From positions 15,788 through 79,787 of the forward strand of contig JAUJNH010000006.1 of NCBI GenBank assembly GCA_030448245.1: DNA of 64,000 bases, given 5' to 3'. This document shows positions 1,792 through 12,333 of the stretch, in pieces. The position numbers and the translations under genes are program-made. A model generated the notes under the pieces. It did not search any database. It saw only the letters and a program-made list of their open reading frames with translations, and was not told the DNA's origin. Position 1 is the stretch's first letter. Each line of letters starts with the position of its first letter. The stretch is from Acidimicrobiales bacterium. GTDB taxonomy: Bacteria; Actinomycetota; Acidimicrobiia; Acidimicrobiales; JAUJNH01.

Positions 1792-2919
1792 GTGAAGTTC
1801 GTCGACGAGTACCGAGACCCTGCAGCCGCGCGCGTGCTCTTGAAGGTCATCAACGACCTGGCCGCCGGTGACGAGTTCAAGTTCATGGAGGTGTGCGGTG
1901 GCCACACCCACACCATCTACCGGCACGGGATCGAGCACATCCTGCCCGAGGGCGTCGAGCTGATCCACGGCCCGGGCTGCCCGGTGTGCGTGATCCCGAT
2001 GGGCCGGGTCGACGACGCCATCGCCGTGGCCGAGCACCCCAACGTCATCTTCACGTCGTTCGGCGACATGATGCGGGTCCCCGGCAGCAAGGGCACGCTG
2101 CTGGAGGCAAAGGCGCGAGGCGCCGACGTGCGCTTCGTGTACTCGCCGCTCGACGCCCTGCGCATCGCCGTCGAGAACCCCACCAAGGAGGTGGTGTTCT
2201 TCGCCGTCGGCTTCGAGACCACCGCCCCGTCCACCGCGGTCACCGTGCTGCGGGCCCGGGAGATGGGGGTCCGCAACTTCCGGGTGTTCTCGAACCACGT
2301 GACGATCGTCCCGCCGCTCAAGGCCATCCTCGAGTCGCCTGACCTGCGCCTCGACGGCTTCCTCGGCCCAGGCCACGTGTCCACCGTGGTCGGCAACCGC
2401 CCCTACCGGTTCGTGCCCGAGCGCTACGGCAAGCCCGTGGTCACCGCCGGCTTCGAGCCGCTCGACATCCTCCAGACCATCGTGATGCTGCTCAAGCAGA
2501 TCCGCGAGGGCCGCTGCGAGGTCGAGAACCAGTACAGCCGGATCGTCCGCGACGAGGGGAACCCCCGGGCCCTGAAGCTGCTGGCCGACGTGTTCGTGCT
2601 GCGCCCGCACTTCGAGTGGCGGGGGCTCGGCTTCATCGCCCAGAGCGGCCTGGCCCTGCGCCCCGACCTGTCGATGTTCGACGCCGAGGTGTACTACGAG
2701 GTGCCGGGCGTGCGGGTGGCCGACCCCAAGGCCTGCCAGTGCGGCGAGGTCCTCAAGGGCGTCATCCGGCCGTGGGAGTGCAAGGTCTTCGGCACCGCCT
2801 GCACCCCCGAGACCCCCATCGGCACCTGCATGGTGTCCAGCGAGGGCGCCTGCGCCGCCTACTACAACTTCGGCCGCATGCACCGCGAAGCCGCGGTCAC
2901 CCTCGGCCGCCGCGCCTAG
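1792..2919 (+). CDS. hypD: Hydrogenase maturation factor HypD
   Basis: 375 aa; conserved HypD motifs CGGHTH, GPGCPVC, FETTAP, C-terminal CxxC-rich tail; immediately downstream of hypF. Confidence 0.85.
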   Translation: MKFVDEYRDPAAARVLLKVINDLAAGDEFKFMEVCGGHTHTIYRHGIEHILPEGVELIHGPGCPVCVIPMGRVDDAIAVAEHPNVIFTSFGDMMRVPGSKGTLLEAKARGADVRFVYSPLDALRIAVENPTKEVVFFAVGFETTAPSTAVTVLRAREMGVRNFRVFSNHVTIVPPLKAILESPDLRLDGFLGPGHVSTVVGNRPYRFVPERYGKPVVTAGFEPLDILQTIVMLLKQIREGRCEVENQYSRIVRDEGNPRALKLLADVFVLRPHFEWRGLGFIAQSGLALRPDLSMFDAEVYYEVPGVRVADPKACQCGEVLKGVIRPWECKVFGTACTPETPIGTCMVSSEGACAAYYNFGRMHREAAVTLGRRA

Positions 2920-2995
2920 AACACGATCCCCTCGTCCCGTCCGGGCCGGTGACCGTGCCGCCCTAGGTCCCCGACGTCGCTGATCCGGCCCGTGC

Positions 2996-3559
2996 TTGAT
3001 GACCGCAGGCGGGGCGGGCGCCGGTAGGGTCAGGGCGATGTTGGTCGGTCCCGTGCACGCGCTCGCGGCCTTGCTGGCGGTCGCCGCGATGGCCAAGCTC
3101 CGGGATCCGACCTCGGCCGCCGCCGCCCTGGGCCGAGCCGGTCTCCCCAACGCGCTCGTCCTCGTGCGGACGCTCGCCGTCGCCGAGATGCTGGTGGCCG
3201 CGGCGGTCCTGTTCGTCGGCGGGGTGCTGCCCGTCGTCGCCCTCGGGTTGCTGCACCTCGGCTTTGCCGCCTTTCTGGTCAGGTTGCGGCGAGCCGCGGG
3301 GGCCGGGGCCAGCTGTGGCTGCTTCGGTGGTGCCGAGGCGCCTGTCGGTCTCCTGCACGTGGTGGTGAACGCGGCTGCCGCCGGCGCCGCGGCCGTCTCG
3401 CTGACCGGGTCGCTCCCCTCGCTTCCCGCCGTGCTCGGCGATGGGGTGGGCCTCGCCGTCCCCTACGCCGCCGCGGTGGCCGTGGGGGCGTGGGCCACCG
3501 GCCTGTGCCTCACCTCGCTCCCCACCCTCTTCGCCGCCCAGCGCCAGGTGGCCGGATGA
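2996..3559 (+). CDS. MauE-family (methylamine utilisation protein MauE-like) / DoxX-like polytopic membrane protein
   Basis: Four predicted TM helices, conserved CGCFGG motif typical of MauE family; true start may be the internal Met (MLVGPV) ~40 nt downstream. Confidence 0.55.
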   Translation: MMTAGGAGAGRVRAMLVGPVHALAALLAVAAMAKLRDPTSAAAALGRAGLPNALVLVRTLAVAEMLVAAAVLFVGGVLPVVALGLLHLGFAAFLVRLRRAAGAGASCGCFGGAEAPVGLLHVVVNAAAAGAAAVSLTGSLPSLPAVLGDGVGLAVPYAAAVAVGAWATGLCLTSLPTLFAAQRQVAG

Positions 3560-4323
3560 CCGCACTGGTCGTCCTCCAGTCGGTGGTGCTGGTCGTGCTG
3601 GTGGTGCTCGTGAGCGGCCTGCTCCGCAGCCATGCCACCATCCTCCGCCGGCTCCACGAGCTCGGGGCGGGGACCGAGGCGCCGCCCACCTCGCGCCCCC
3701 GCCCGCCCAGCCAGCTCCCCGGCCCGACGGCCGGCCGGCCGGCGTCGCTCCCGGCTCACGACATCAGCGGGCTCGGCCTCGACGACGGAGCCGTCGCCGT
3801 CCGCGTCGTCGAGGTGGAGCACGACACGATCCTCGTCTTCCTCTCCAGCGGCTGCTCCACCTGCGGAGCCTTCTGGGAGGCGCTGGGCCAGCCGGACCTG
3901 GCCCTGCCCCAGGGAACCCGGCTCGTTCTCGTCACCCAGGGCCCCGACCGCGAACACGTCACCCTTGTGGCCGAGCTGGCACCCACCCACGTCCCGCTGA
4001 TCCTCTCGAACGAGGCATGGCACGACTACGCCGTGCCCGGATCGCCCTACGTCGTGCTCGTCGACGGCCCGTCGGGACGCGTCGTCGGCGAGGGCACGGC
4101 CCCCACCTTCGAGCAGGTCCTGTCCATGCTCGGCCGTGCGGTCGACGACGCAGCCCACCGGTCGCGGCTGGCCAGCCACCGGGGCGAAAAGGCGAAGGCT
4201 GACGCCGCGCGTGAGGCGGAGATCGACGATGCCCTGATCGTCGCCGGCGTGCGTCCCGGCGACCCGAGCCTCTACCGGTCGGTCGACCAGCCGTCGGCGC
4301 CCGACGAAGGGGCTCCGCCGTGA
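3556..4323 (+). CDS. Membrane-anchored thioredoxin-fold protein (MauD/TlpA-like thiol:disulfide oxidoreductase)
   Basis: Start ATG overlaps upstream stop (ATGA); N-terminal TM anchor; thioredoxin fold with CSTC active-site motif (FLSSGCSTCGAFW). Confidence 0.55.
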   Translation: MTALVVLQSVVLVVLVVLVSGLLRSHATILRRLHELGAGTEAPPTSRPRPPSQLPGPTAGRPASLPAHDISGLGLDDGAVAVRVVEVEHDTILVFLSSGCSTCGAFWEALGQPDLALPQGTRLVLVTQGPDREHVTLVAELAPTHVPLILSNEAWHDYAVPGSPYVVLVDGPSGRVVGEGTAPTFEQVLSMLGRAVDDAAHRSRLASHRGEKAKADAAREAEIDDALIVAGVRPGDPSLYRSVDQPSAPDEGAPP

Positions 4324-4400
4324 CCTCCGTCGTGGCCCTCGGGGTCGTTCTGGCTGCACTGGCCGCCGTCCGCTCGACCTGGTCGCCCTGAGGCGAGTCG

Positions 4401-5012
4401 ATGCTGGGAAGCATCACCCCGCTCGGTGAGCAGGGGCGCGGCAACCGCTGGTGGCTGACGGCTGCCTCCTATGCCGCGGCGTCTGCCCTCGGAGGTCTGC
4501 TCGTCGGGGCCGTCGCCGGCCTTCTCGGCGCCGCGCTGCGGCTGGGTGGCCTGGCTCTGGCCCCGGCGGTTGCCCTCCTGGTCATCGCCACCGCCGCCCT
4601 CCTCGGGCTCGTGGCCGACAACCGTCTGCTCGGCCTGCGCCTGCCGACCCTCCGACGGCAGGTCGACGAGCGGTGGATCGGGCGCTACCGGGGCTGGGTC
4701 TTCGGAGCCGGCTTCGGCTTCCAGCTCGGCCTCGGGGTGGCCACCATCGTCACGGCGTCCGCCACGTGGGCCGCCCTCGCCGCCGCCGCCGCCTCGCAGT
4801 CGGTGGTCGGCGGCGCCGTCGTCGGCCTCGTCTTCGGCGGGGTGCGGGCCGTTCCCGTCCTGGCCGCTGTTCGCACCTCCACCCCCGACGCCGTCCGCCG
4901 CCTCCACCTGCGCGTGGCCGCGCTGTCGCGGCCGGTCGACCGTGCGGTCCGGGCCGCCCAAGCCGCCGTGGCCGTCCTGGCCCTCCTCCTCGCCCTGCCC
5001 GCCCTGGCCTGA
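4401..5012 (+). CDS. Hypothetical polytopic membrane protein
   Basis: 203 aa, Ala/Leu/Gly-rich TM segments, coding-like GC3; no recognisable family. Confidence 0.35.
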   Translation: MLGSITPLGEQGRGNRWWLTAASYAAASALGGLLVGAVAGLLGAALRLGGLALAPAVALLVIATAALLGLVADNRLLGLRLPTLRRQVDERWIGRYRGWVFGAGFGFQLGLGVATIVTASATWAALAAAAASQSVVGGAVVGLVFGGVRAVPVLAAVRTSTPDAVRRLHLRVAALSRPVDRAVRAAQAAVAVLALLLALPALA

Positions 5013-5063
5013 CCGCCAGCACCTCCCAGCACACCTCAGCACCGACGATCCGGAGCGCCCGCC

Positions 5064-5555
5064 ATGCACCTCGCCGCCCACGGCTTCAGCATCGACCTCC
5101 CGAGGGGTTGGGAGGGGACCATCTCGCGCCGCCTCGACGCCGTTGCGGCCCGGTCCGCCGGTGCCGTCGGCGGGGCGATCCCGCTCGTCGAGGAGCAGGT
5201 CCTCCCCGTCGTCCACCTCGCCAACTTCGGCCTGCCAGGCGATCGGGGCGACTTCGGCAGCGGCGCCGTCGAGATCATGGGCCCGGACGACGTGTTCATC
5301 GCCATGCTCGAGTTCGGACCGGAGTGCGCCGGCACCGCGCTGTTCGCCGACACTCGGCTCCCTCGGCTCGACCCCTCCAAGTTCGACCGCAACCGGCTGC
5401 AGCGAACGCTCGCCGGCCAGTCTGGGCACCAGTCGTGGTACACGATCAACGGGCGAGCGCTCGGCCTGTACGCGGTCCTCGGTTCCCACGGCCTGGCTGG
5501 GAAGCTGGTGCCACGGGTCAACGAGGTCCTGGCCAACGTGCGGGTGGCCGCCTGA
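5064..5555 (+). CDS. Hypothetical protein
   Basis: 163 aa ORF with non-repetitive composition; stop overlaps next start (TGATG). Confidence 0.35.
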   Translation: MHLAAHGFSIDLPRGWEGTISRRLDAVAARSAGAVGGAIPLVEEQVLPVVHLANFGLPGDRGDFGSGAVEIMGPDDVFIAMLEFGPECAGTALFADTRLPRLDPSKFDRNRLQRTLAGQSGHQSWYTINGRALGLYAVLGSHGLAGKLVPRVNEVLANVRVAA

Positions 5556-6277
5556 TGGCGATTCCCCGCACCCGCGCCCGCCGCGGCGCCGGGCGCGCCC
5601 CGGGGGAGGAGCAAGACGGGGCCGGGGCGGCCGGTGCGAGCAGGCCCCTCACCGAGCGGCTCGTCGACTTGACCTCCTCCGCTCTCGACCGGCCGACCGA
5701 CCGACGCAGCGTCCTCCAGAAGGCGGCCCTCGTCGGCTCGGCCGTGGCCACCGGCGGGGTCGGGTACATCCTCCGCCCTGGGACGGCCTACGCCTCGGTC
5801 TGCGGAGACGGCGCCAGCTGCTCGTCCGGGTGGACGGCCTTCTGCTGCACCGTCCACGGCTCGAACACCTGCCCGCCGAACTCGTTCCCGGCCGGGTGGT
5901 GGAAGATCGACGCGTCGCCCTTCTGCGACGGCCAGGCCCGCTACATCGTGGACTGCAACGCCACCTGTCCCACCCGGTGCAGCTGCCGCTGCGCCTCGGG
6001 CACCTGCGACGAGCGCAGGGTCTGCTGCAACCAGTTCCGGTACGGCCAGTGCAACACCCAGATCGCCTGCGCCGGCCCGGTCGTGTGCCGGGTCGCCCTC
6101 TGCACCCCGCCGTGGGTGTGGAGCTCGGCCTGCACGACTACGAGCCGCACCGACAACCGCACAGCGACCCACAACGCCCCCTGCCTGTCCTCGAGTGCCA
6201 GCCGCACCCCGGAGCTGGGTGACCCTCGCTTCCTCTCGTGGCTGCTGGAGCGGCTCCTGGGCCAGCGGGGCTCGTAG
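5555..6277 (+). CDS. TAT-exported cysteine-rich protein (20 Cys; motif spacing reminiscent of methylamine dehydrogenase light chain MauA)
   Basis: 240 aa; twin-arginine motif DRRSVLQKAALVGSAVA; mature region has 20 Cys including CC-x7-C twice, TCPPNS, CSCRC, paired Trp (GWWK, PPWVW); start by offset within ORF 4451..6277. Confidence 0.5.
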   Translation: MAIPRTRARRGAGRAPGEEQDGAGAAGASRPLTERLVDLTSSALDRPTDRRSVLQKAALVGSAVATGGVGYILRPGTAYASVCGDGASCSSGWTAFCCTVHGSNTCPPNSFPAGWWKIDASPFCDGQARYIVDCNATCPTRCSCRCASGTCDERRVCCNQFRYGQCNTQIACAGPVVCRVALCTPPWVWSSACTTTSRTDNRTATHNAPCLSSSASRTPELGDPRFLSWLLERLLGQRGS

Positions 6278-6322
6278 GGGATCGTCGGGGGCCGTCCCAC
6301 CGCCCCGGTACGGTCGCCTCTG

Positions 6323-7072
6323 ATGAACGCCGACGAGCACGAGCGGGCGCTGCGGCGCATCCGGGGGCTGCTCGACAAGGCCGGCTCGACCAGCTTCGGG
6401 CCCGAGGCCGACGCCCTGTACGACAAGGCGGCCGAGCTGATGGCCAAGCATCGGATCGACGCCGCCCTGCTCGAGGCCAGCCGGGCACCGGCCGACCGCA
6501 GCCCGGTGGTCGAGCGGCCGGTCGAGCTGGGCGCCGGCCAGTACGTGCGGGCCCGCCTGCAGCTGATCCACCACGTGGCCGTGAACCACGGCTGCCGCCT
6601 GCTGACCCACACCACCAGGAACGGCCGGGTGGCCACCGTGGTCGGGGTGGGGGACGACTGCGAGCGCGTCGAGCTGCTGTACACCAGCCTGCTGCTGCAG
6701 GCCACCCGCCTGGCCGGCGCCGCCTGGGTCGAGCGGGCCCGCCGGTCGAGGACCGGCCAGGTGGCGTGGAAGCGGGAGTTCATGTTCGGCTTCGGCGCCC
6801 GGGTGGGGGAGCGGCTGGCCGAGCTGTCCGAGCAGGCCGCCCGTGCGCCGGCGGCGGCCGGGGCGGGCGGTGGTTCGGTGGCTCTGGTCCTGGCCGACCG
6901 GTCCACCCGGGTCGACGAGTGGCTCCACCGGGCCTACCCGAGGGTCCGCTCGCTGGCGCCCGCTGCCGCGTTCGCCGGTCACGGTGGCCTGGCGGCCGGC
7001 CGGGCGTCGGCCGACCAGGCCGACTTAGGCGGCCGGTCGCTGGAGACGGCCCGGCGGGCCCTCCGGCGCTGA
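6323..7072 (+). CDS. DUF2786 domain protein
   Basis: N-terminal ALRRIRGLLDKAGSTSFGPEADALYDKAAELMAKHRID matches the DUF2786 signature. Confidence 0.6.
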   Translation: MNADEHERALRRIRGLLDKAGSTSFGPEADALYDKAAELMAKHRIDAALLEASRAPADRSPVVERPVELGAGQYVRARLQLIHHVAVNHGCRLLTHTTRNGRVATVVGVGDDCERVELLYTSLLLQATRLAGAAWVERARRSRTGQVAWKREFMFGFGARVGERLAELSEQAARAPAAAGAGGGSVALVLADRSTRVDEWLHRAYPRVRSLAPAAAFAGHGGLAAGRASADQADLGGRSLETARRALRR

Positions 7073-7076
7073 CGCC

Positions 7077-7598
7077 GTGGCCGGCGCGGCTCGCGACGGT
7101 GAGCGCCAGAAGACCTACGACGCCGAGGACGCCGCCTTCCTCGACACCTCCTACGCCGAGCGGTTGGGGGAGTGGGGCTGTCGCTGGCTCCTCGACCGGC
7201 TGGTGGCGACGCCGTGGTGGGCGGCGGCTGCCGGCAGTCGCCCAGCACTGCGGGCGGCTCGCGTCGATAGCGCTCGGTCCACCACGGTGGTGGCCGCCGA
7301 CAGGGTCGAGGTGCGCATCGGGCCCGGCATGGACCAGGCCCACGTCCTCTCCCACGAGCTGGCCCACCTCGTCTCCGGGTCGGAAGCCGGCCACGGGCCC
7401 CGGTTCCGGGCGGCCCACCTCGACGTGGCCACCGTGCTCCTCGGCGGCCACGGCGCCGGCCGCCTGGCCGACCGCTACGCCCGGGCCGGGCTGGCCCTCG
7501 ATCACCGCCGCTGGCCCCCGCCTCCCGACCACGGCGAGGGTGGCCTCCTCGCCGTGTGGCAGGCCCGCCGCGCCCTCGACGCCCTCGGCCGCCCCTAG
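7077..7598 (+). CDS. Putative zinc metallopeptidase (HExxH motif, SprT-like)
   Basis: 173 aa; HELAHL motif followed by conserved Gly/His region; 5 nt downstream of the DUF2786 gene. Confidence 0.5.
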   Translation: MAGAARDGERQKTYDAEDAAFLDTSYAERLGEWGCRWLLDRLVATPWWAAAAGSRPALRAARVDSARSTTVVAADRVEVRIGPGMDQAHVLSHELAHLVSGSEAGHGPRFRAAHLDVATVLLGGHGAGRLADRYARAGLALDHRRWPPPPDHGEGGLLAVWQARRALDALGRP

Positions 7599-7757
7599 CG
7601 CGAGCCACGGCAAATCCCGAGCCTCCGAGCGGCGGCGAATCCTGGCGCGGCATCAGGCTGGGTACCCTCCGCAAGGATGGCGGGGCTCGAGCGCCGGACC
7701 GACTCGTGGGGCCGCGCGGCGCCCGCCCTGTCGCCGAAGCTGCCGCGCACCGCCTCG

Positions 7758-8027
7758 ATGAGCAGGTTGGAGGCCTGGGTCTGGGTGGTCCTCCGCGGGT
7801 TCGTGTTCGTCCCTGGGGCGCTGATGGGCCTGGCGCTGGCCTTCGCCCTCGGCTACGGGGGTTACAACGCCGTCCTCGTCTACGCCCACCTCCTGTGGGT
7901 CCCCGCGGCGATCGTCTGCTGGGTCCAGGCCTCCTGCGGCAAGGGCGGCGACCGCTGGACGGCGGGCTTCGTCGCCCTCTGGGCCCTCGAGCTGGCCGTG
8001 ATGCGGATCGGTTCCTGGATCATCTGA
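7758..8027 (+). CDS. Small membrane protein (hypothetical)
   Basis: Two to three TM helices, coding-like GC3; start uncertain (ORF opens at 7677). Confidence 0.3.
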   Translation: MSRLEAWVWVVLRGFVFVPGALMGLALAFALGYGGYNAVLVYAHLLWVPAAIVCWVQASCGKGGDRWTAGFVALWALELAVMRIGSWII

Positions 8028-8295
8028 CGCGCCTCTGGCGTGACGGCGGGTGGGCCCGGCGCCTGGCCATCTGGCTTCCCGAGGGACCGGACCTGGCAGG
8101 CGCGACGGAAGCGCCGCGTCGGATGGTGCGTTGGGACCGGGACGGGGTATCGTCTCGCCGGCGGCGGATGCCGAGGACTTGTCCCCCCGTGGGTGGGGTC
8201 GATGGGTCTCCGAACACCGCTGCGCAGAGAGCAGGACCGGAGGAGAGGCACTGGCCGAGGTAGGCACCCGCGTCGACGACCCGCACTGGGTCTCG

Positions 8296-11200
8296 ATGGT
8301 CGAGAACGAGGCGGCGGGTGAAGCCGCGCCCGGTGACCTGGCAGCCCTGGACGGCGACCGCCTCCGGTGGCTCCGGGTGGCCCAGGCGCTGCTGCGCGAC
8401 ACCGAGGACGCCCTCGAGGAGGCGGGCGAGCTGCCCGAGCCGGCGCTGCGGGCCCAGGTCGGCGCCGACCTCGACGCAGAGCTGCGGCTGCTGTCCGCGG
8501 CCGTCACCCGCGCCGCCGTCGCCGCCGGCCTCGGGACGCTGTGGCAGGCGCCCCCACCGAGCCGGGCCGCGGCCAACGGGGCCGCCAGCGAGGCCGGCAC
8601 CACCGACGTGGCGGCGGTCCCGGCGGGGCCGCCCCGCCTCCAGGGGTCGTGGGTCGACGGGGGGCTGGTCCTGTGGGCGGGAGGACCCGGCGCCAAGCCG
8701 CTGTCGGCCGAAGAGGTCGTGGCCCTCGCCGTGTCCATCGACAGCACGCTCGACACGGGCGGCTGGACCCGCCGCAAGCCGGTCATCGTCCCCGGCGGCG
8801 AGCAGGCCGAGGCGTGGGCGGTGCCGCTCGACCGGATCCTCGGCTGGCTGGTGGCCGTGGCCAGCACCCCGCCCGGCGAGGTCGTCGCCCCCAGCCTGCG
8901 CTGGCTGGGTGAGGTGGCGGCGTGGGCGGTCGAGCTGTCGGCGCTGGGCCGCGCCGTGCCGATCCTGCGGCGCTCGACCGGGAGCGGGCCGACGGCGCGG
9001 TGCCGGGTGCGCTGGACGCCGGCCCTGGTCGACAAGGGGCGCCTCGAGGCGGCGGCCGCCCGCCGGCCCGGCGCCGCCGTCATCACCGCCCCCGCCGAGG
9101 ACGCCGTGGTCACGACCCGCTCGGTCCTCGGCTCGGTGGTCGACACGCTCTTCCGGCACGCCGCCTCGCTGGCCCGGAAGATCCCCGAGCCGCCGGCCAC
9201 CACCACGGCGGCAGAAGTCGGCGAGGCGATCCTGGCGGGGCTGGCCGGTGAGCGGTTCGATGCTGCCGAGCGGGTGGCCGGGATGGTCGAGCACCGCCTG
9301 AACCGGTGGGCCAGGCCGGTCACGGCCGACGTGGGCCCCCCGCTCCTCGTCCGCCTGGCCGAGCCCGACTCGGAGGGGGTGTGGCTGCTGTCGGTCCACG
9401 TCCCCGGCGCCGGGGCGGGTGGCGGCGAGGTGCCGGTCGAGGTGGCCATGGGCACCTCGCGGGGCGAGGAGCGCCGCGCGGTCGAGGTGGCCTACGGTCG
9501 GCTGGAGCGGTTGGTGCCCCTCGTCTCCCGGCCCGGCCGGGCCCGTCGGGGCGAGGTGGCGCTGTCCGACACCGAGGCCTGGGAGCTGCTCAGCGAGGTG
9601 GGGCCGTCGCTCGAGGCCGCCGGGTTCTCCGTGCAGGTCCCGCGGCTCCAGCGCCGCAGCCCCTCGCCCGTCCTCCGCCTGTTCACCAAGGAGGGGGGCT
9701 CACCGCAGGTCGGCGCCAACCAGCTGGTCGACGTGCGCTGGTCGGTGCTGATCGGCGACCTCGAGCTGGGCGCAGCCGACATCGCCCGCCTCGCCGCCCA
9801 GGCCAAGCCCCTGGTGCGCACCGGTGGGCGCTGGGTGGCGCTCGAGCGGGCCGACCTGGCCGAGGCGGCGGCGGCCCTGGCCGAACGGTCCAAGGTGACC
9901 CAGATGACCGGTGGGGCCGTCCTGCGCGAGGCCCTCGGCCTTGAGGGCTCCGGTCCTTCCGGCGGGATCCGGGTCGATGGCGAAGGGTGGGCGGCCGACC
10001 TGCTCCGCGAGGCCGGCGCCTTCCCGCCGCCTCCGGTCGATCCCCCCGAAGCGTTCCGGGGCACGCTCCGCTCCTACCAGGCCGAGGCCCTTGGGTGGCT
10101 CACCTTCCTCGACCGGGCCGGGCTCGGCGGCTGCCTCGCCCTCGACATGGGCCTCGGCAAGACGGCCACCGTGCTGGCCCGCATCCTCTCCACGGCCGAC
10201 CAGGGGCCGACCCTGGCGGTGGTCCCCCAGGCCGTGCTCACCAACTGGGCGGCCGAGGCGAACCGCTTCACCCCGCGCTTGCGGGTCGCCATCCACCACG
10301 GCGCCGCCCGCAGCGACGACGTGGTGCGGATGGCCGCCCACCATGACCTGGTGGTCACCACCTTCGGGACGGCGATCCGCGACATCGACAGCCTGGCCTC
10401 GGTGAAGTGGGACCGGATCGTCGTCGACGAGGCCCAGAACATCAAGAACCCGGCGTCCGAGACGGCCAAGAGCCTGCGCCGCCTCCCCGGCCGGTCGCGC
10501 CTGGCGCTGACGGGGACGCCGGTCGAGAACGGCCTCGGTGACCTGTGGGCCATCCTCGACTTCACCAACCCTGGCCTCGTGGGTGCCCGCGACGCGTTCG
10601 TGGCCGGGCTCTCGGGCAAGACGCTGGGCGGCCAGGGGGCCGAGGCCGCGCTGCGGGCCCTGAACGGCCTCCTGGTGTTCCGGCGCACGAAGTCGGAGCC
10701 GGAGATCGGTGCCGAACTGCCCGACAAGATCGACGAGCTCGAGCGGTGCGCCATGACCGCTGAGCAGGTCGGCCTGTACCAGGCGGTCCTCGACAAGCTG
10801 GTCGCCGACCCCCCGACCGGTGACACCAAGGTGCGCAACGGGCGGGTGCTGGCCGCCATCACCGCCCTGAAGCAGATCTGCGACCACCCGGCCGCCTACA
10901 CCCACGACGACCGGCCGCTCGCCGGCCGGTCGGGCAAGCTGTCGAGGCTCGAGCAGGTGGCCGATGCGGTGCGGGCGGCCGGCGAGAAGCTGCTGATCTT
11001 CACCCACTTCGCCTCGTGGGGCGAGCGGCTGGCCGACCACCTGTCCGACCGCTACGACGAGCCCGTCGGCTGCTACCACGGCGGCCTGGCCCGCGGCGCC
11101 CGGGACAAGATGATCGCCGACTGGAAGGCCCGGCAGGGCGGCGGGATCCTCGTTCTGTCCCTAAAGGCGGGCGGCACCGGACTGAACCTCACCGAGGCCA

Positions 11201-11502
11201 GCCACGTCGTCCTCTACGACCGGTGGTGGAACCCGGCCGTCGAGGACCAGGCCCGTGACCGGGCCTGGCGCATCGGCCAGGAGCGCACCGTCGTCTCCCG
11301 GCGGTTCGTGTGCCCCGGCACCATCGACGAGCGGGTCGAGGAGGTCGTCGCCGGCAAGCGCCGCATCGCCGACCTCGTGCTGCCGGCCTCCTCGTCGCTG
11401 GGCGACCTCTCGGCCGAGCAGCTGCGGGTCGCCCTCGGCCTGCGCCCGGACCAGCTGGTGGCCGCCGAGGACGGCTCGACCGACGAGGAGGCTGCAGCAT
11501 GA
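8296..11502 (+). CDS. SNF2/RapA-family DEAD/DEAH-box helicase with long N-terminal SNF2-associated domain
   Basis: SNF2_N motifs LRSYQAEALGWL, DMGLGKT, DEAQNIKN, LTGTPVEN; helicase-C motifs GGTGLNLTEASHV, QARDRAWRIGQ; start ambiguous (first in-frame ATG used; GTG upstream possible). Confidence 0.85.
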   Translation: MVENEAAGEAAPGDLAALDGDRLRWLRVAQALLRDTEDALEEAGELPEPALRAQVGADLDAELRLLSAAVTRAAVAAGLGTLWQAPPPSRAAANGAASEAGTTDVAAVPAGPPRLQGSWVDGGLVLWAGGPGAKPLSAEEVVALAVSIDSTLDTGGWTRRKPVIVPGGEQAEAWAVPLDRILGWLVAVASTPPGEVVAPSLRWLGEVAAWAVELSALGRAVPILRRSTGSGPTARCRVRWTPALVDKGRLEAAAARRPGAAVITAPAEDAVVTTRSVLGSVVDTLFRHAASLARKIPEPPATTTAAEVGEAILAGLAGERFDAAERVAGMVEHRLNRWARPVTADVGPPLLVRLAEPDSEGVWLLSVHVPGAGAGGGEVPVEVAMGTSRGEERRAVEVAYGRLERLVPLVSRPGRARRGEVALSDTEAWELLSEVGPSLEAAGFSVQVPRLQRRSPSPVLRLFTKEGGSPQVGANQLVDVRWSVLIGDLELGAADIARLAAQAKPLVRTGGRWVALERADLAEAAAALAERSKVTQMTGGAVLREALGLEGSGPSGGIRVDGEGWAADLLREAGAFPPPPVDPPEAFRGTLRSYQAEALGWLTFLDRAGLGGCLALDMGLGKTATVLARILSTADQGPTLAVVPQAVLTNWAAEANRFTPRLRVAIHHGAARSDDVVRMAAHHDLVVTTFGTAIRDIDSLASVKWDRIVVDEAQNIKNPASETAKSLRRLPGRSRLALTGTPVENGLGDLWAILDFTNPGLVGARDAFVAGLSGKTLGGQGAEAALRALNGLLVFRRTKSEPEIGAELPDKIDELERCAMTAEQVGLYQAVLDKLVADPPTGDTKVRNGRVLAAITALKQICDHPAAYTHDDRPLAGRSGKLSRLEQVADAVRAAGEKLLIFTHFASWGERLADHLSDRYDEPVGCYHGGLARGARDKMIADWKARQGGGILVLSLKAGGTGLNLTEASHVVLYDRWWNPAVEDQARDRAWRIGQERTVVSRRFVCPGTIDERVEEVVAGKRRIADLVLPASSSLGDLSAEQLRVALGLRPDQLVAAEDGSTDEEAAA

Positions 11503-11614: not shown

Positions 11615-11893
11615 ATGAGCGGGCGGCGCAGGAAGAAGCCGGCAGCGGTGGCCGCGGCCGACGCGGCGAAGTTCTGGGGGTCCGACGTCGACGAGCCCAT
11701 CGCCCCGTTCATCCGGCCGACCGCCGACCCCACGGCCCTGCTGCGGTCGCTCGGGCCCATCCCCCTCACCGTGCAGGACAAGCTGGCCGCGGCCCAGCTC
11801 CACGCCGTCTACGAGAAGGCCACCATGGTGGCCACGGCCGTGGCGTCGGCCGCCAGCCTGGTCGAGGTCGACGAGGGCAGTCCCGGGTCTTGA
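11615..11893 (+). CDS. Small hypothetical protein downstream of SNF2 helicase
   Basis: 92 aa, basic N-terminus (MSGRRRKKP), coding-like frame. Confidence 0.35.
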   Translation: MSGRRRKKPAAVAAADAAKFWGSDVDEPIAPFIRPTADPTALLRSLGPIPLTVQDKLAAAQLHAVYEKATMVATAVASAASLVEVDEGSPGS

Positions 11894-11967
11894 CCCCGGG
11901 AGCCGGATTCGGGAGCATGCGGTCGGGGAACCACGCTTCTCCATCGACAGGACCAGGAGGGGACCAC

Positions 11968-12333
11968 ATGCAAGGGATCCTGCGCCTCACGGCCACCGCT
12001 GCGATCGGAGGCCTGGTCCTCCTCGGCTGCGGGGGTGAGGGCAGCTCCGACAGCCCCGATGACGACGTGACCGTCAACAGCTGCGCCCCCACCCCCGGCG
12101 GGGGCAAGCCCGAGGCGGGCGGGGCGATCACCAACCGCACGACCAAGGCAAGCGGCTACACCTTCCGCGTGCGGTTCCTCGACCCGTCCGGCAACGAGGT
12201 GAGCATGGGGACGACGGCCGTCGCCAGGGTCGAGCCGAACGGCACCGCCACCTGGACGCTGCAGGGCGCCACCAGCGCGAACGGCCCCCTCACCTGCAGG
12301 GTGTCGAACGTCACCCGCACCGCCATCCCCTGA
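11968..12333 (+). CDS. Lipoprotein (hypothetical)
   Basis: AGGAGG RBS 8 nt upstream; signal peptide with lipobox LLGCGG. Confidence 0.5.
   Translation: MQGILRLTATAAIGGLVLLGCGGEGSSDSPDDDVTVNSCAPTPGGGKPEAGGAITNRTTKASGYTFRVRFLDPSGNEVSMGTTAVARVEPNGTATWTLQGATSANGPLTCRVSNVTRTAIP

Follow-up and report, generated by a model that had tools for sequence, protein, structure and literature searches.

To our knowledge, small subunits that carry tryptophan tryptophylquinone (TTQ) have been described only together with a heavy subunit and MauG, and almost entirely in Proteobacteria. Genetic studies of the 1990s identified mauE, mauD and mauF as genes needed for making the small subunit, and work by Chistoserdov in 1994 is said to have tied the genetics of mauF, mauE and mauD to small-subunit production. 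Here, we analyzed a 64-kb stretch of DNA from an Acidimicrobiales bacterium (assembly GCA_030448245.1, contig JAUJNH010000006.1; hereafter, the window), in which a forward-strand gene at 5555..6277 encodes a cysteine-rich, putatively MauA-like precursor of 240 amino acids (aa). On balance, we consider it probable that the product is a wall-associated, disulfide-knotted, MauA-like domain that is exported by the twin-arginine translocation (Tat) pathway and is the cargo of its own MauE/D/F cassette, with a partner protein of 163 aa.

The nearest published observation comes from Streptomyces, in which mauE, with or without mauD, adjoins genes for Cys-rich (at least 8 Cys) candidate precursors of RiPPs (peptides made on the ribosome and modified after translation) identified by decRiPPter; no other mau-cluster orthologues were found in the genomes of these candidate clusters (PMC7794033). 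The decRiPPter clusters resemble the present locus in that mauE, with or without mauD, lies beside a gene for a Cys-rich product in Actinobacteria. They differ in that the present gene encodes a Tat pre-protein of 240 aa and not a short precursor peptide, with a folded domain of ~130 residues that is conserved in the sampled Actinomycetota. MauE carries a CXC-F-G active-site signature, can replace DsbB and is regarded as a generalist oxidase, with MauA present in only ~10% of MauE-containing species (bioRxiv 10.64898/2026.03.05.709764). As cited in PMC7794033 and in bioRxiv 10.64898/2026.03.05.709764, van der Palen (1997) tied MauE, MauD and MauF to small-subunit production. Our literature searches returned nothing on a MauA-like family in Actinobacteria, nor on the Cys-rich protein described here.

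The open reading frame (ORF) at 5555..6277 is a real gene. Its GC content by codon position (0.59/0.68/0.95) follows the same pattern as that of the neighboring genes in a window of 73% GC, and a protein search returned 318 homologues (E ≤ 1e-3), in which the Cys and motif positions are strongly conserved. An earlier, sequence-only reading of this DNA had argued that the ORF is not a wrong-frame artefact and had named the opposite-strand ORF 5036..6982 as the competitor to be checked. The GC content at third codon positions (GC3) of that antisense ORF is 0.74 over its own whole length and 0.60 across the bases of 5555..6277, compared with 0.95 in the forward frame, which rules it out as the true gene. 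We also rejected a long same-frame ORF that begins at 4451, the upstream part of which is occupied by genes with proper GC3 in other frames. The two shadow ORFs, 4451-6277 on the forward strand (608 aa) and 5036-6982 on the reverse strand (648 aa), each cross several real genes; long shadow ORFs are typical of DNA with 73% GC and are a trap for gene calling by ORF length.

The same reading had pointed to a start codon that shares one base with the preceding stop. Read directly from the letters at 5553-5557 (TGATG), the TGA of the 163-aa gene occupies 5553-5555 and the ATG of the Cys-rich gene 5555-5557, with one base in common. In three related loci that have gene calls and the 163-aa homologue upstream, the two genes overlap by 4, 20 and 1 nucleotides (nt). 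Overlaps of 1 or 4 nt are frequent in high-GC operons, and the MauE and thioredoxin genes described below overlap as well (ATGA, 3556-3559); therefore, the overlap at 5555 is real but ordinary.

The gene is the last of a conserved five-gene cassette, which runs on one strand in the order mauE-like, mauD-like, mauF-like, 163-aa gene and mauA-like gene. When the window neighbors were searched by tblastn against 84 related loci, homologues were found in 81 loci for the 163-aa gene, 76 for the thioredoxin, 63 for MauE and 47 for the MauF-like protein. The first of these counts bears out the tight coupling to the upstream gene that had been read from the overlap. The flanking hypD, DUF2786 and SprT genes were found by tblastn in none of the 84 loci, and clustering of all neighboring ORFs in the loci analyzed yielded no further conserved partner. 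By their sequences, the first three genes are homologues of mauE, mauD and mauF.

The MauE homologue (3038..3559, forward strand), a predicted DsbB-like membrane thiol oxidase, matches Pfam PF07291 at an E-value of 8.8e-13 (49.1 bits against a cut-off of 27) and contains SCGCFGG, which corresponds to the CXC-F-G signature. A TTG at 2996 is an alternative start, and a near-identical record (L085) uses the ATG at 3038. The product of the second gene (3556..4323, forward strand) is MauD-like and of thioredoxin fold; it is anchored in the membrane at its N terminus and carries a CSTC motif. Its match to the NCBIfam model TIGR02661 has an E-value of 1.3e-5 and is weak, at 24.7 bits against an equivalog cut-off of 188.6; among 14 mau-cluster proteins, the product is closest to Methylobacterium MauD (BLASTP, E 5.9e-6). 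Some relatives, such as a 371-aa protein of L001, are MauE-thioredoxin fusions. The pair thus resembles MauE/MauD as the analogue of DsbB/DsbA, with the CXC-F-G signature, an anchored CXXC protein of thioredoxin fold, and genes that are adjacent, overlapping and sometimes fused; unlike the generalist pathway, it belongs here to a dedicated cassette in which only one client is obvious.

The third gene (4401..5012, forward strand) encodes a MauF-like polytopic membrane protein of a short form. A profile built from 47 MauF-like relatives matches Methylobacterium MauF with 59.2 bits (profile positions 5-159, MauF residues 94-249), whereas 300 shuffled MauF sequences score at most 7.5 bits on the same profile; its match to Pfam DsbD_2 is weak and below the cut-off. 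The window copy contains no Cys and lacks the N-terminal part of MauF. The MauF-like gene sometimes lies downstream of the Cys-rich gene, and two forms of the protein occur: the short, Cys-less form, which is that of the window and is encoded between the thioredoxin gene and that of the 163-aa protein, and a longer form downstream of the Cys-rich gene (L002 at ~8950-9723; L034, L050 and L052), which matches the MauF segment that bears the Cys motif SPCGYSSLC. In two loci (L003, 7450-10620, and L004), the order is MauE, Cys-rich gene (4-nt overlap), a 130-aa gene, thioredoxin, MauF-like gene and 163-aa homologue. The 163-aa partner is, therefore, not always directly upstream, yet it stays in the cassette.

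The MauE/D/F context led us to compare the Cys-rich protein with MauA, for which we used the P. versutus sequence (identical to PDB 3c75_L). The gene order mauE-D-A of a canonical mau cluster (L086) is the same as that of the cassette. A BLASTP alignment of the window protein with MauA, which is not significant, pairs NTCPPNSFPAGWW with TNCPPGTKLATASW. With the full precursors, hhalign gave a probability of 95.3% and an E-value of 2.4e-8 over 81 colinear columns, which run from the leader helix through the Tat motif to CPPG. As the Tat motif is generic, we split this signal into its parts. The leader n-region without the twin-arginine motif gave P = 4.6e-5 (score 15.5; shuffles 5.2 ± 1.4, maximum 9.1), with the leader helix aligned to the FDxxVEKLxRRVA segment of MauA leaders, while the mature cores alone gave P = 1.2e-3, with one of 200 column-shuffled controls reaching the score. 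On a hidden Markov model (HMM) of the family leader, MauA leaders have a median of 20.4 bits, compared with at most 15.6 bits for 14 unrelated Tat leaders. In global mode, hhalign of the Cys-rich family against MauA was uninformative.

The first half of the mature domain shares its Cys framework with MauA: C83-x5-C89-x8-C98-x7-C106-P-P corresponds exactly in spacing to C23-x5-C29-x8-C38-x7-C46-P-P. A Trp follows 9-11 residues past CPP in both proteins; BLASTP and an extended hhalign alignment place W115 against MauA W57, in a register that is uncertain by one residue. W57 is the quinone-bearing Trp of MauA. Farther along, D133-C134 resembles MauA D76-C77 by eye, and hhalign offsets the two by a few residues where its confidence is zero. 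In a stretch that is aligned with low confidence, C172 is matched to MauA C109, and covariation within the family pairs C172 with C138, which adjoins the C77/C78 equivalent; the C138-C172 pair would mirror the C78-C109 bond of MauA. From these comparisons, we judge remote homology to the TTQ light chains MauA and AauA to be very likely for the leader and for the first half of the mature domain.

The window family is like MauA/AauA (PF02975, TIGR02659; PDB 2bbk, 3c75 and 2agl) in several respects. Both have a long pre-sequence with a helix before the twin-arginine motif and a small mature domain of ~130 residues that is disulfide-rich and, as predicted for the present protein, mostly beta, with a Cys framework up to CPP, a Trp on the first strand and, by eye, an Asp-Cys pair on the next. 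In both cases the gene comes after mauE and mauD, and the cassette further includes a mauF homologue. On the other hand, the domain here carries 14-25 Cys, compared with 12, and its second half is different; a cytoplasmic partner of PsbP-like fold is added, and many members carry C-terminal wall-binding modules. The loci that we fetched are from Actinomycetota or unclassified metagenome-assembled genomes (MAGs), whereas organism-named MauA relatives are almost all from Proteobacteria.

Several observations weigh against the reading of this gene as the MauA-like cargo of a folding cassette. The window protein matches neither Pfam PF02975 nor the NCBIfam models (TIGR02659) at E ≤ 1, phmmer and profile searches of PDB sequences found no chains of methylamine or aromatic amine dehydrogenase, and a Foldseek search of the Cys-rich protein against the PDB returned nothing. 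Part of the hhalign score is supplied by the generic Tat motif, and generic leaders reach up to 15.6 bits on the leader HMM. Within the mature domain, confidence in the alignment is confined to the N-terminal half. Extended into the second half, the alignment is at odds with covariation, in which C144 pairs with C158 and not with the C38 equivalent, the partner that the MauA pattern would assign to it. Since so few MauE-containing species have MauA, the presence of MauE is by itself a weak argument for a MauA-like cargo. Tat export of a protein whose disulfides are formed outside the cell is unexplained, as it is for MauA itself, and the chaperone role suggested below for the 163-aa protein is drawn from its predicted fold, location and gene coupling only.

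The Cys-rich protein is not a canonical TTQ light chain. It matches no family HMM, and the second half of its domain has additional Cys and an off-pattern pair, 144-158. At the position equivalent to D32 (S91-G92-W93), the alignment has no Asp, and the position aligned with the partner Trp W108 is A171, which varies in the family (Ala, His, Pro). Furthermore, a heavy subunit, MauG, amicyanin and MauJ/L/M/N are missing from the 84 loci and the window: tblastn with Methylobacterium MauB, G, C, J, L, M and N returned nothing at E ≤ 1e-3 in either.

Could the resemblance to MauA be convergent? Four rival explanations were weighed, all ranked below the one that we prefer, and the best of them, which we nevertheless regard as improbable, is that an unrelated Cys-rich wall protein uses a generalist MauE/thioredoxin folding pathway, as was proposed in Streptomyces. 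MauE is widespread and mostly unlinked to MauA, the Streptomyces clusters introduced above place mauE/mauD beside Cys-rich precursors in genomes with no other mau-cluster orthologues found (PMC7794033), and all of the sequence-to-profile searches fail. However, four independent weak-to-moderate signals, the leader n-region first among them, agree on the MauA family; the identical spacing of five Cys is joined by CPP(G/N) and the Trp; and the cassette holds a clear MauF homologue besides MauE and MauD. The covariation pair C138-C172 also matches the C78-C109 bond of MauA that the alignment predicts.

The mature disulfide-rich domain (residues 81-211; 5795..6187, forward strand) is delimited by conservation and by an AlphaFold2 (AF2) model, in which the predicted local distance difference test (pLDDT) is 83-93 across residues 81-200. 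Its 20 Cys lie at residues 83-210, a stretch of 128 residues, and make up 15.6% of it and 8.3% of the protein; the mean for the other GC3-supported ORFs of the window is 0.94%, so that the Cys density is indeed as extreme as the sequence-only reading had described it. Fourteen of the Cys are among the invariant or nearly invariant positions of the family. The total is even in 90 of 119 relatives, and Cys are lost together from relatives in the pairs 142/157, 138/172 and 144/158. The pairwise loss and the even totals indicate that the Cys are disulfide partners and not metal ligands. The most likely form of the mature domain would be a unit of ~130 residues with up to ten disulfides.

Beyond the Cys, the motifs GWWK-D, RY..DCN, CD.R, FRYGQC, CR...C.PP and TDN.T..H.APCL are conserved in the mature domain. 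Across the sampled family, GWWK, D119, D133, Y163 and H206 are invariant or nearly so. W115 and W116 (codons at 5897-5902) are invariant in 121 sequences; some relatives have Tyr in place of the remaining Trp, W93 and W187, and so there is no third invariant Trp. The conserved polar and aromatic residues (GWWK-D, RY..DC, CD.R, FRYGQC and H206) argue for a specific binding or catalytic site and not a mere scaffold. Judged from the alignment, this site could not be the canonical TTQ site.

Might the protein nevertheless be a functional quinoprotein? W115/W116 together with D133, the D76 equivalent, would form a TTQ-like cofactor or a new Cys-Trp or Lys-Tyr cofactor in a wall-bound amine or other oxidoreductase that has no heavy subunit, with Tat export and the 163-aa partner serving cofactor maturation. 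We find this unlikely. It draws on the homology to a TTQ-bearing subunit, the alignment of W115 with W57, the likeness of D133-C134 to D76-C77, the near-invariance of GWWK, D119, D133, Y163 and H206, and the retention of the accessory genes mauE, mauD and mauF. These points are countered by the lack of a conserved partner Trp W108, which no third invariant Trp replaces, and of an equivalent of D32, and by an even number of invariant Cys (14), none of which is obviously free for a cross-link. Nor do the loci supply the machinery: the cassette contains no MauG, flavoprotein or radical-SAM gene in the 84 loci, heavy-chain and electron-acceptor genes are absent from them, and no CxxCH haem-binding motif occurs in any of the six frames of the 64-kb window.

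The n-region of the leader contains a conserved helix (residues 31-45, PLTERLVDLTSSALD; 5645..5689, forward strand) ahead of the twin arginines, marked by the family consensus ERLV......L and by AF2, which predicts a helix at residues 32-44. The Tat signal core (5696..5794, forward strand) runs from T48-D-R50-R51-S-V-L-Q-K56 (arginine codons at 5702-5707) through a mildly hydrophobic h-region at residues 57-73 (5723-5773) and a basic R74 in the c-region to A78-Y-A80 (5786-5794). The family consensus is S-R-R-x-F-L, and in an alignment of 35 sequences the twin arginines, P75 and A78 do not vary and Y79 and A80 hardly do. The window protein scores 15.4 bits with the NCBIfam Tat model TIGR01409, just below the cut-off of 16.7, and 27 of 35 relatives match at E ≤ 0.1 (best E 2.7e-5). 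These data support the assignment of the leader as a predicted Tat signal peptide.

The Tat-type signal proposed in the sequence-only reading can thus be upheld, both from the motif itself and from the relatives, but the further suggestion of a folded or cofactor-loaded cargo stands only in part. Tat is widely used in Actinomycetota for proteins without a cofactor, so that a Tat signal alone does not imply one. Moreover, since the Cys act as disulfide partners and the adjacent genes encode a dedicated system that forms disulfides outside the cytoplasm, much of the folding must follow export.

A near-identical genome (L085; GCA_030447705.1, JAUJOI010000014.1), which shows 31 differences from the window over 8,492 aligned bases, carries a change in this leader. 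At the bases that correspond to 5699-5704, its copy (4492-5214) reads AAC TGA in place of GAC CGA, that is, D49N and R50stop, at the first Arg of the twin-arginine pair. As a result, the Cys-rich gene is called there as pieces of 49 and 177 aa. The stop codon could mean that the gene is a pseudogene there, or it could be a variant within the population or an error of assembly. The exact sequence of the window protein has no database record, and this split copy is the nearest one.

Downstream of the Cys-rich domain, residues 224-234 (FLSWLLERLLG; 6224..6256, forward strand) form a C-terminal amphipathic helix predicted by AF2 (block pLDDT 79 over residues 221-230, falling to 71 over residues 231-240), and short relatives end in similar L..LL.RLL tails. 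Many relatives are longer (300-740 aa), with C-terminal modules in the position of this tail helix: LGFP repeats, CW_binding_2 (CWB2), DUF4214, B_lectin (bulb-type, putidacin-like), Ricin B lectin and FG-GAP. The C-terminal fusions are all wall- or glycan-binding modules, and we count them as support for an envelope location. A bulb-type lectin end is present in 7 of 35 sampled relatives and matches the putidacin L1 lectin-like bacteriocin model NF033557, at E-values down to 1.2e-16; the window protein itself has no B-lectin (MMBL) domain by Pfam or NCBIfam. Other relatives end in 'GYWLVASDGGIFPFGDA'-type repeats without a Pfam match.

The 163-aa protein (5064..5555, forward strand) has 836 homologues and is predicted to adopt a Mog1/PsbP-like alpha-beta sandwich fold (AF2 pLDDT 91.5). 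By sequence and profile, it has no match in Pfam, NCBIfam or the solved structures of the PDB, and its profile found nothing among MauJ and the other mau proteins. The protein has no signal peptide and so is taken to be cytoplasmic. Members of the Mog1/PsbP fold bind partners, and some are chaperones that bind secreted effectors by their hydrophobic N-terminal segments. The inference that we prefer is that the 163-aa protein is a cytoplasmic escort of the Cys-rich Tat precursor, possibly through the leader helix; the alternative is a signal-less subunit that is co-exported with the cargo. It has no detectable sequence similarity to the Mog1/PsbP-fold proteins of known systems (DUF1795 Eag chaperones, the Tsi3/TplEi immunity proteins and mycobacterial LpqN/Mtc28), and it is unlike these in being both cytoplasmic and coupled to a Tat substrate. 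We know of no Mog1/PsbP-fold protein that serves as a chaperone of a Tat substrate.

The lectin ends and the gene pair raise the possibility, which we rate as quite doubtful, of a secreted bacteriocin-like toxin that is directed to other cells by lectin or wall modules, with the 163-aa protein as its immunity protein. The match of 7 of the 35 relatives to the putidacin L1 model fits such a toxin, and tight translational coupling is typical of toxin-immunity pairs. However, an immunity role is less likely for a cytoplasmic protein whose cargo depends on extracytoplasmic disulfides and so folds outside the cell; the two active states would not meet. The fold is also shared by chaperones (EagT6/PA0094 and SciW) and by partners that have nothing to do with toxins (PsbP, LpqN and Mog1). 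In addition, the cargo retains ~50% identity across distant orders, with no toxin-type polymorphism, and most of the fusions (LGFP, CWB2) tether a protein to the producer's own wall.

The weakest rival, a Tat-exported iron-sulfur or metallothionein-like protein whose Cys bind metal that is loaded in the cytoplasm (hence Tat), has in its favor the very high Cys density with a C-x-C-x-C run at 142-146, the typical use of Tat signals by cofactor-loaded proteins, and the metal-center maturation genes hypF and hypD just upstream, but it is very improbable, because Pfam gives no match to Fer4 or another metal-cluster family, the CxxCxxCxxxCP motif is absent, the Cys are gained and lost strictly in pairs (the C142/C144 run being itself variable), a DsbB/DsbA-type oxidizing pair is co-encoded, hypF/hypD are linked to the cassette at no other locus, and the closest structural relatives are disulfide-rich and do not bind metal. 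Iron-sulfur or other metal binding was, therefore, ruled out on the motifs and on Cys covariation.

How might the cassette work if the Cys-rich protein is a Tat-exported client of its own MauE/D/F module? Translational coupling would cause the pre-protein and the cytoplasmic 163-aa protein to be made together, and the 163-aa protein would most likely hold or escort the unfolded precursor, perhaps by its leader helix, until Tat export. The precursor would then be targeted to Tat through S/T-R-R-x-F/V-L, and signal peptidase would cleave it after AYA. Outside the membrane, the anchored MauD-like thioredoxin (CSTC) would introduce or shuffle the disulfides and would be re-oxidized by MauE, a quinone-linked analogue of DsbB (CGC), and the MauF-like membrane protein would assist. 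The folded domain would be kept at the envelope by the C-terminal amphipathic helix in the present protein and by LGFP, CWB2 or lectin modules in the longer relatives.

What would be new here is a relative of the TTQ small subunits that has neither heavy chain nor MauG, that has its own MauE/D/F folding module, and that has gained a partner of PsbP-like fold and wall anchors. This points to a large, unannotated sister family of the TTQ small subunits in Actinomycetota. If the proposal is true, the family would be an evolutionary outgroup for the origin of the TTQ site on a disulfide-knot scaffold, and the cassette would be a natural single-client system for the recently proposed MauE/MauD disulfide pathway and MauF in envelopes of the Gram-positive type. 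It would also raise the question of how Tat handles a protein with ten disulfides, and whether a protein of PsbP-like fold escorts it. A bolder possibility, to which we give little credence, is a heavy-chain-independent, wall-displayed branch of tryptophylquinone small subunits, widespread in Actinomycetota, with a protein-derived cofactor or catalytic center other than TTQ at GWWK-D/D133/Y163/H206 that is made without MauG, the 163-aa protein being a new Tat-leader chaperone or a co-exported subunit.

The family is both large and widespread. A profile search of 1.84 billion cluster representatives gave 295 clusters (50% identity) at E ≤ 1e-30, and a scan with one genome per species found a relative encoded in at least 558 species genomes. 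All 80 of the 80 fetched loci are from Actinomycetota or unclassified MAGs and include Acidimicrobiales, Iamiaceae, Aquihabitans, Microthrixaceae, Nitriliruptoraceae, Euzebya, Frankiaceae, Nakamurella and Jatrophihabitans; across distant orders, the Cys-rich domain is ~50% identical. None of the 318 relatives has a Pfam domain on the Cys-rich core, and neither Pfam nor NCBIfam has a model that covers this core or the 163-aa partner. The source annotations of the relatives and partners read "hypothetical", "Tat signal domain-containing" or "LGFP repeat-containing", labels that a family assignment would supersede on hundreds of genes.

Directly upstream of the cassette, the window carries the hydrogenase-maturation genes hypF (partial, 579 aa) and hypD at 4-2919; a link of these genes to the cassette was ruled out, as they are not linked to it at any other locus. 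A promoter and terminator scan of 2800-6500 found no sites with the sigma-70 and T-run models used, which are uninformative at 73% GC. Downstream, at 6323-11502, lie a DUF2786/DUF7168 gene, a weak SprT-like gene with HEXXH, a gene for a 116-aa membrane-like protein and a gene for a 1150-aa SNF2 helicase with DUF3670, of which the DUF2786/DUF7168, SprT-like and 116-aa genes are not conserved with the cassette. Farther along, an ORF of 147 aa at 11890-12333, which has no Pfam match, shows an unusual codon-position GC (0.59/0.65/0.89) and contains a lipobox-like ...LVLLGCGGEG... segment.

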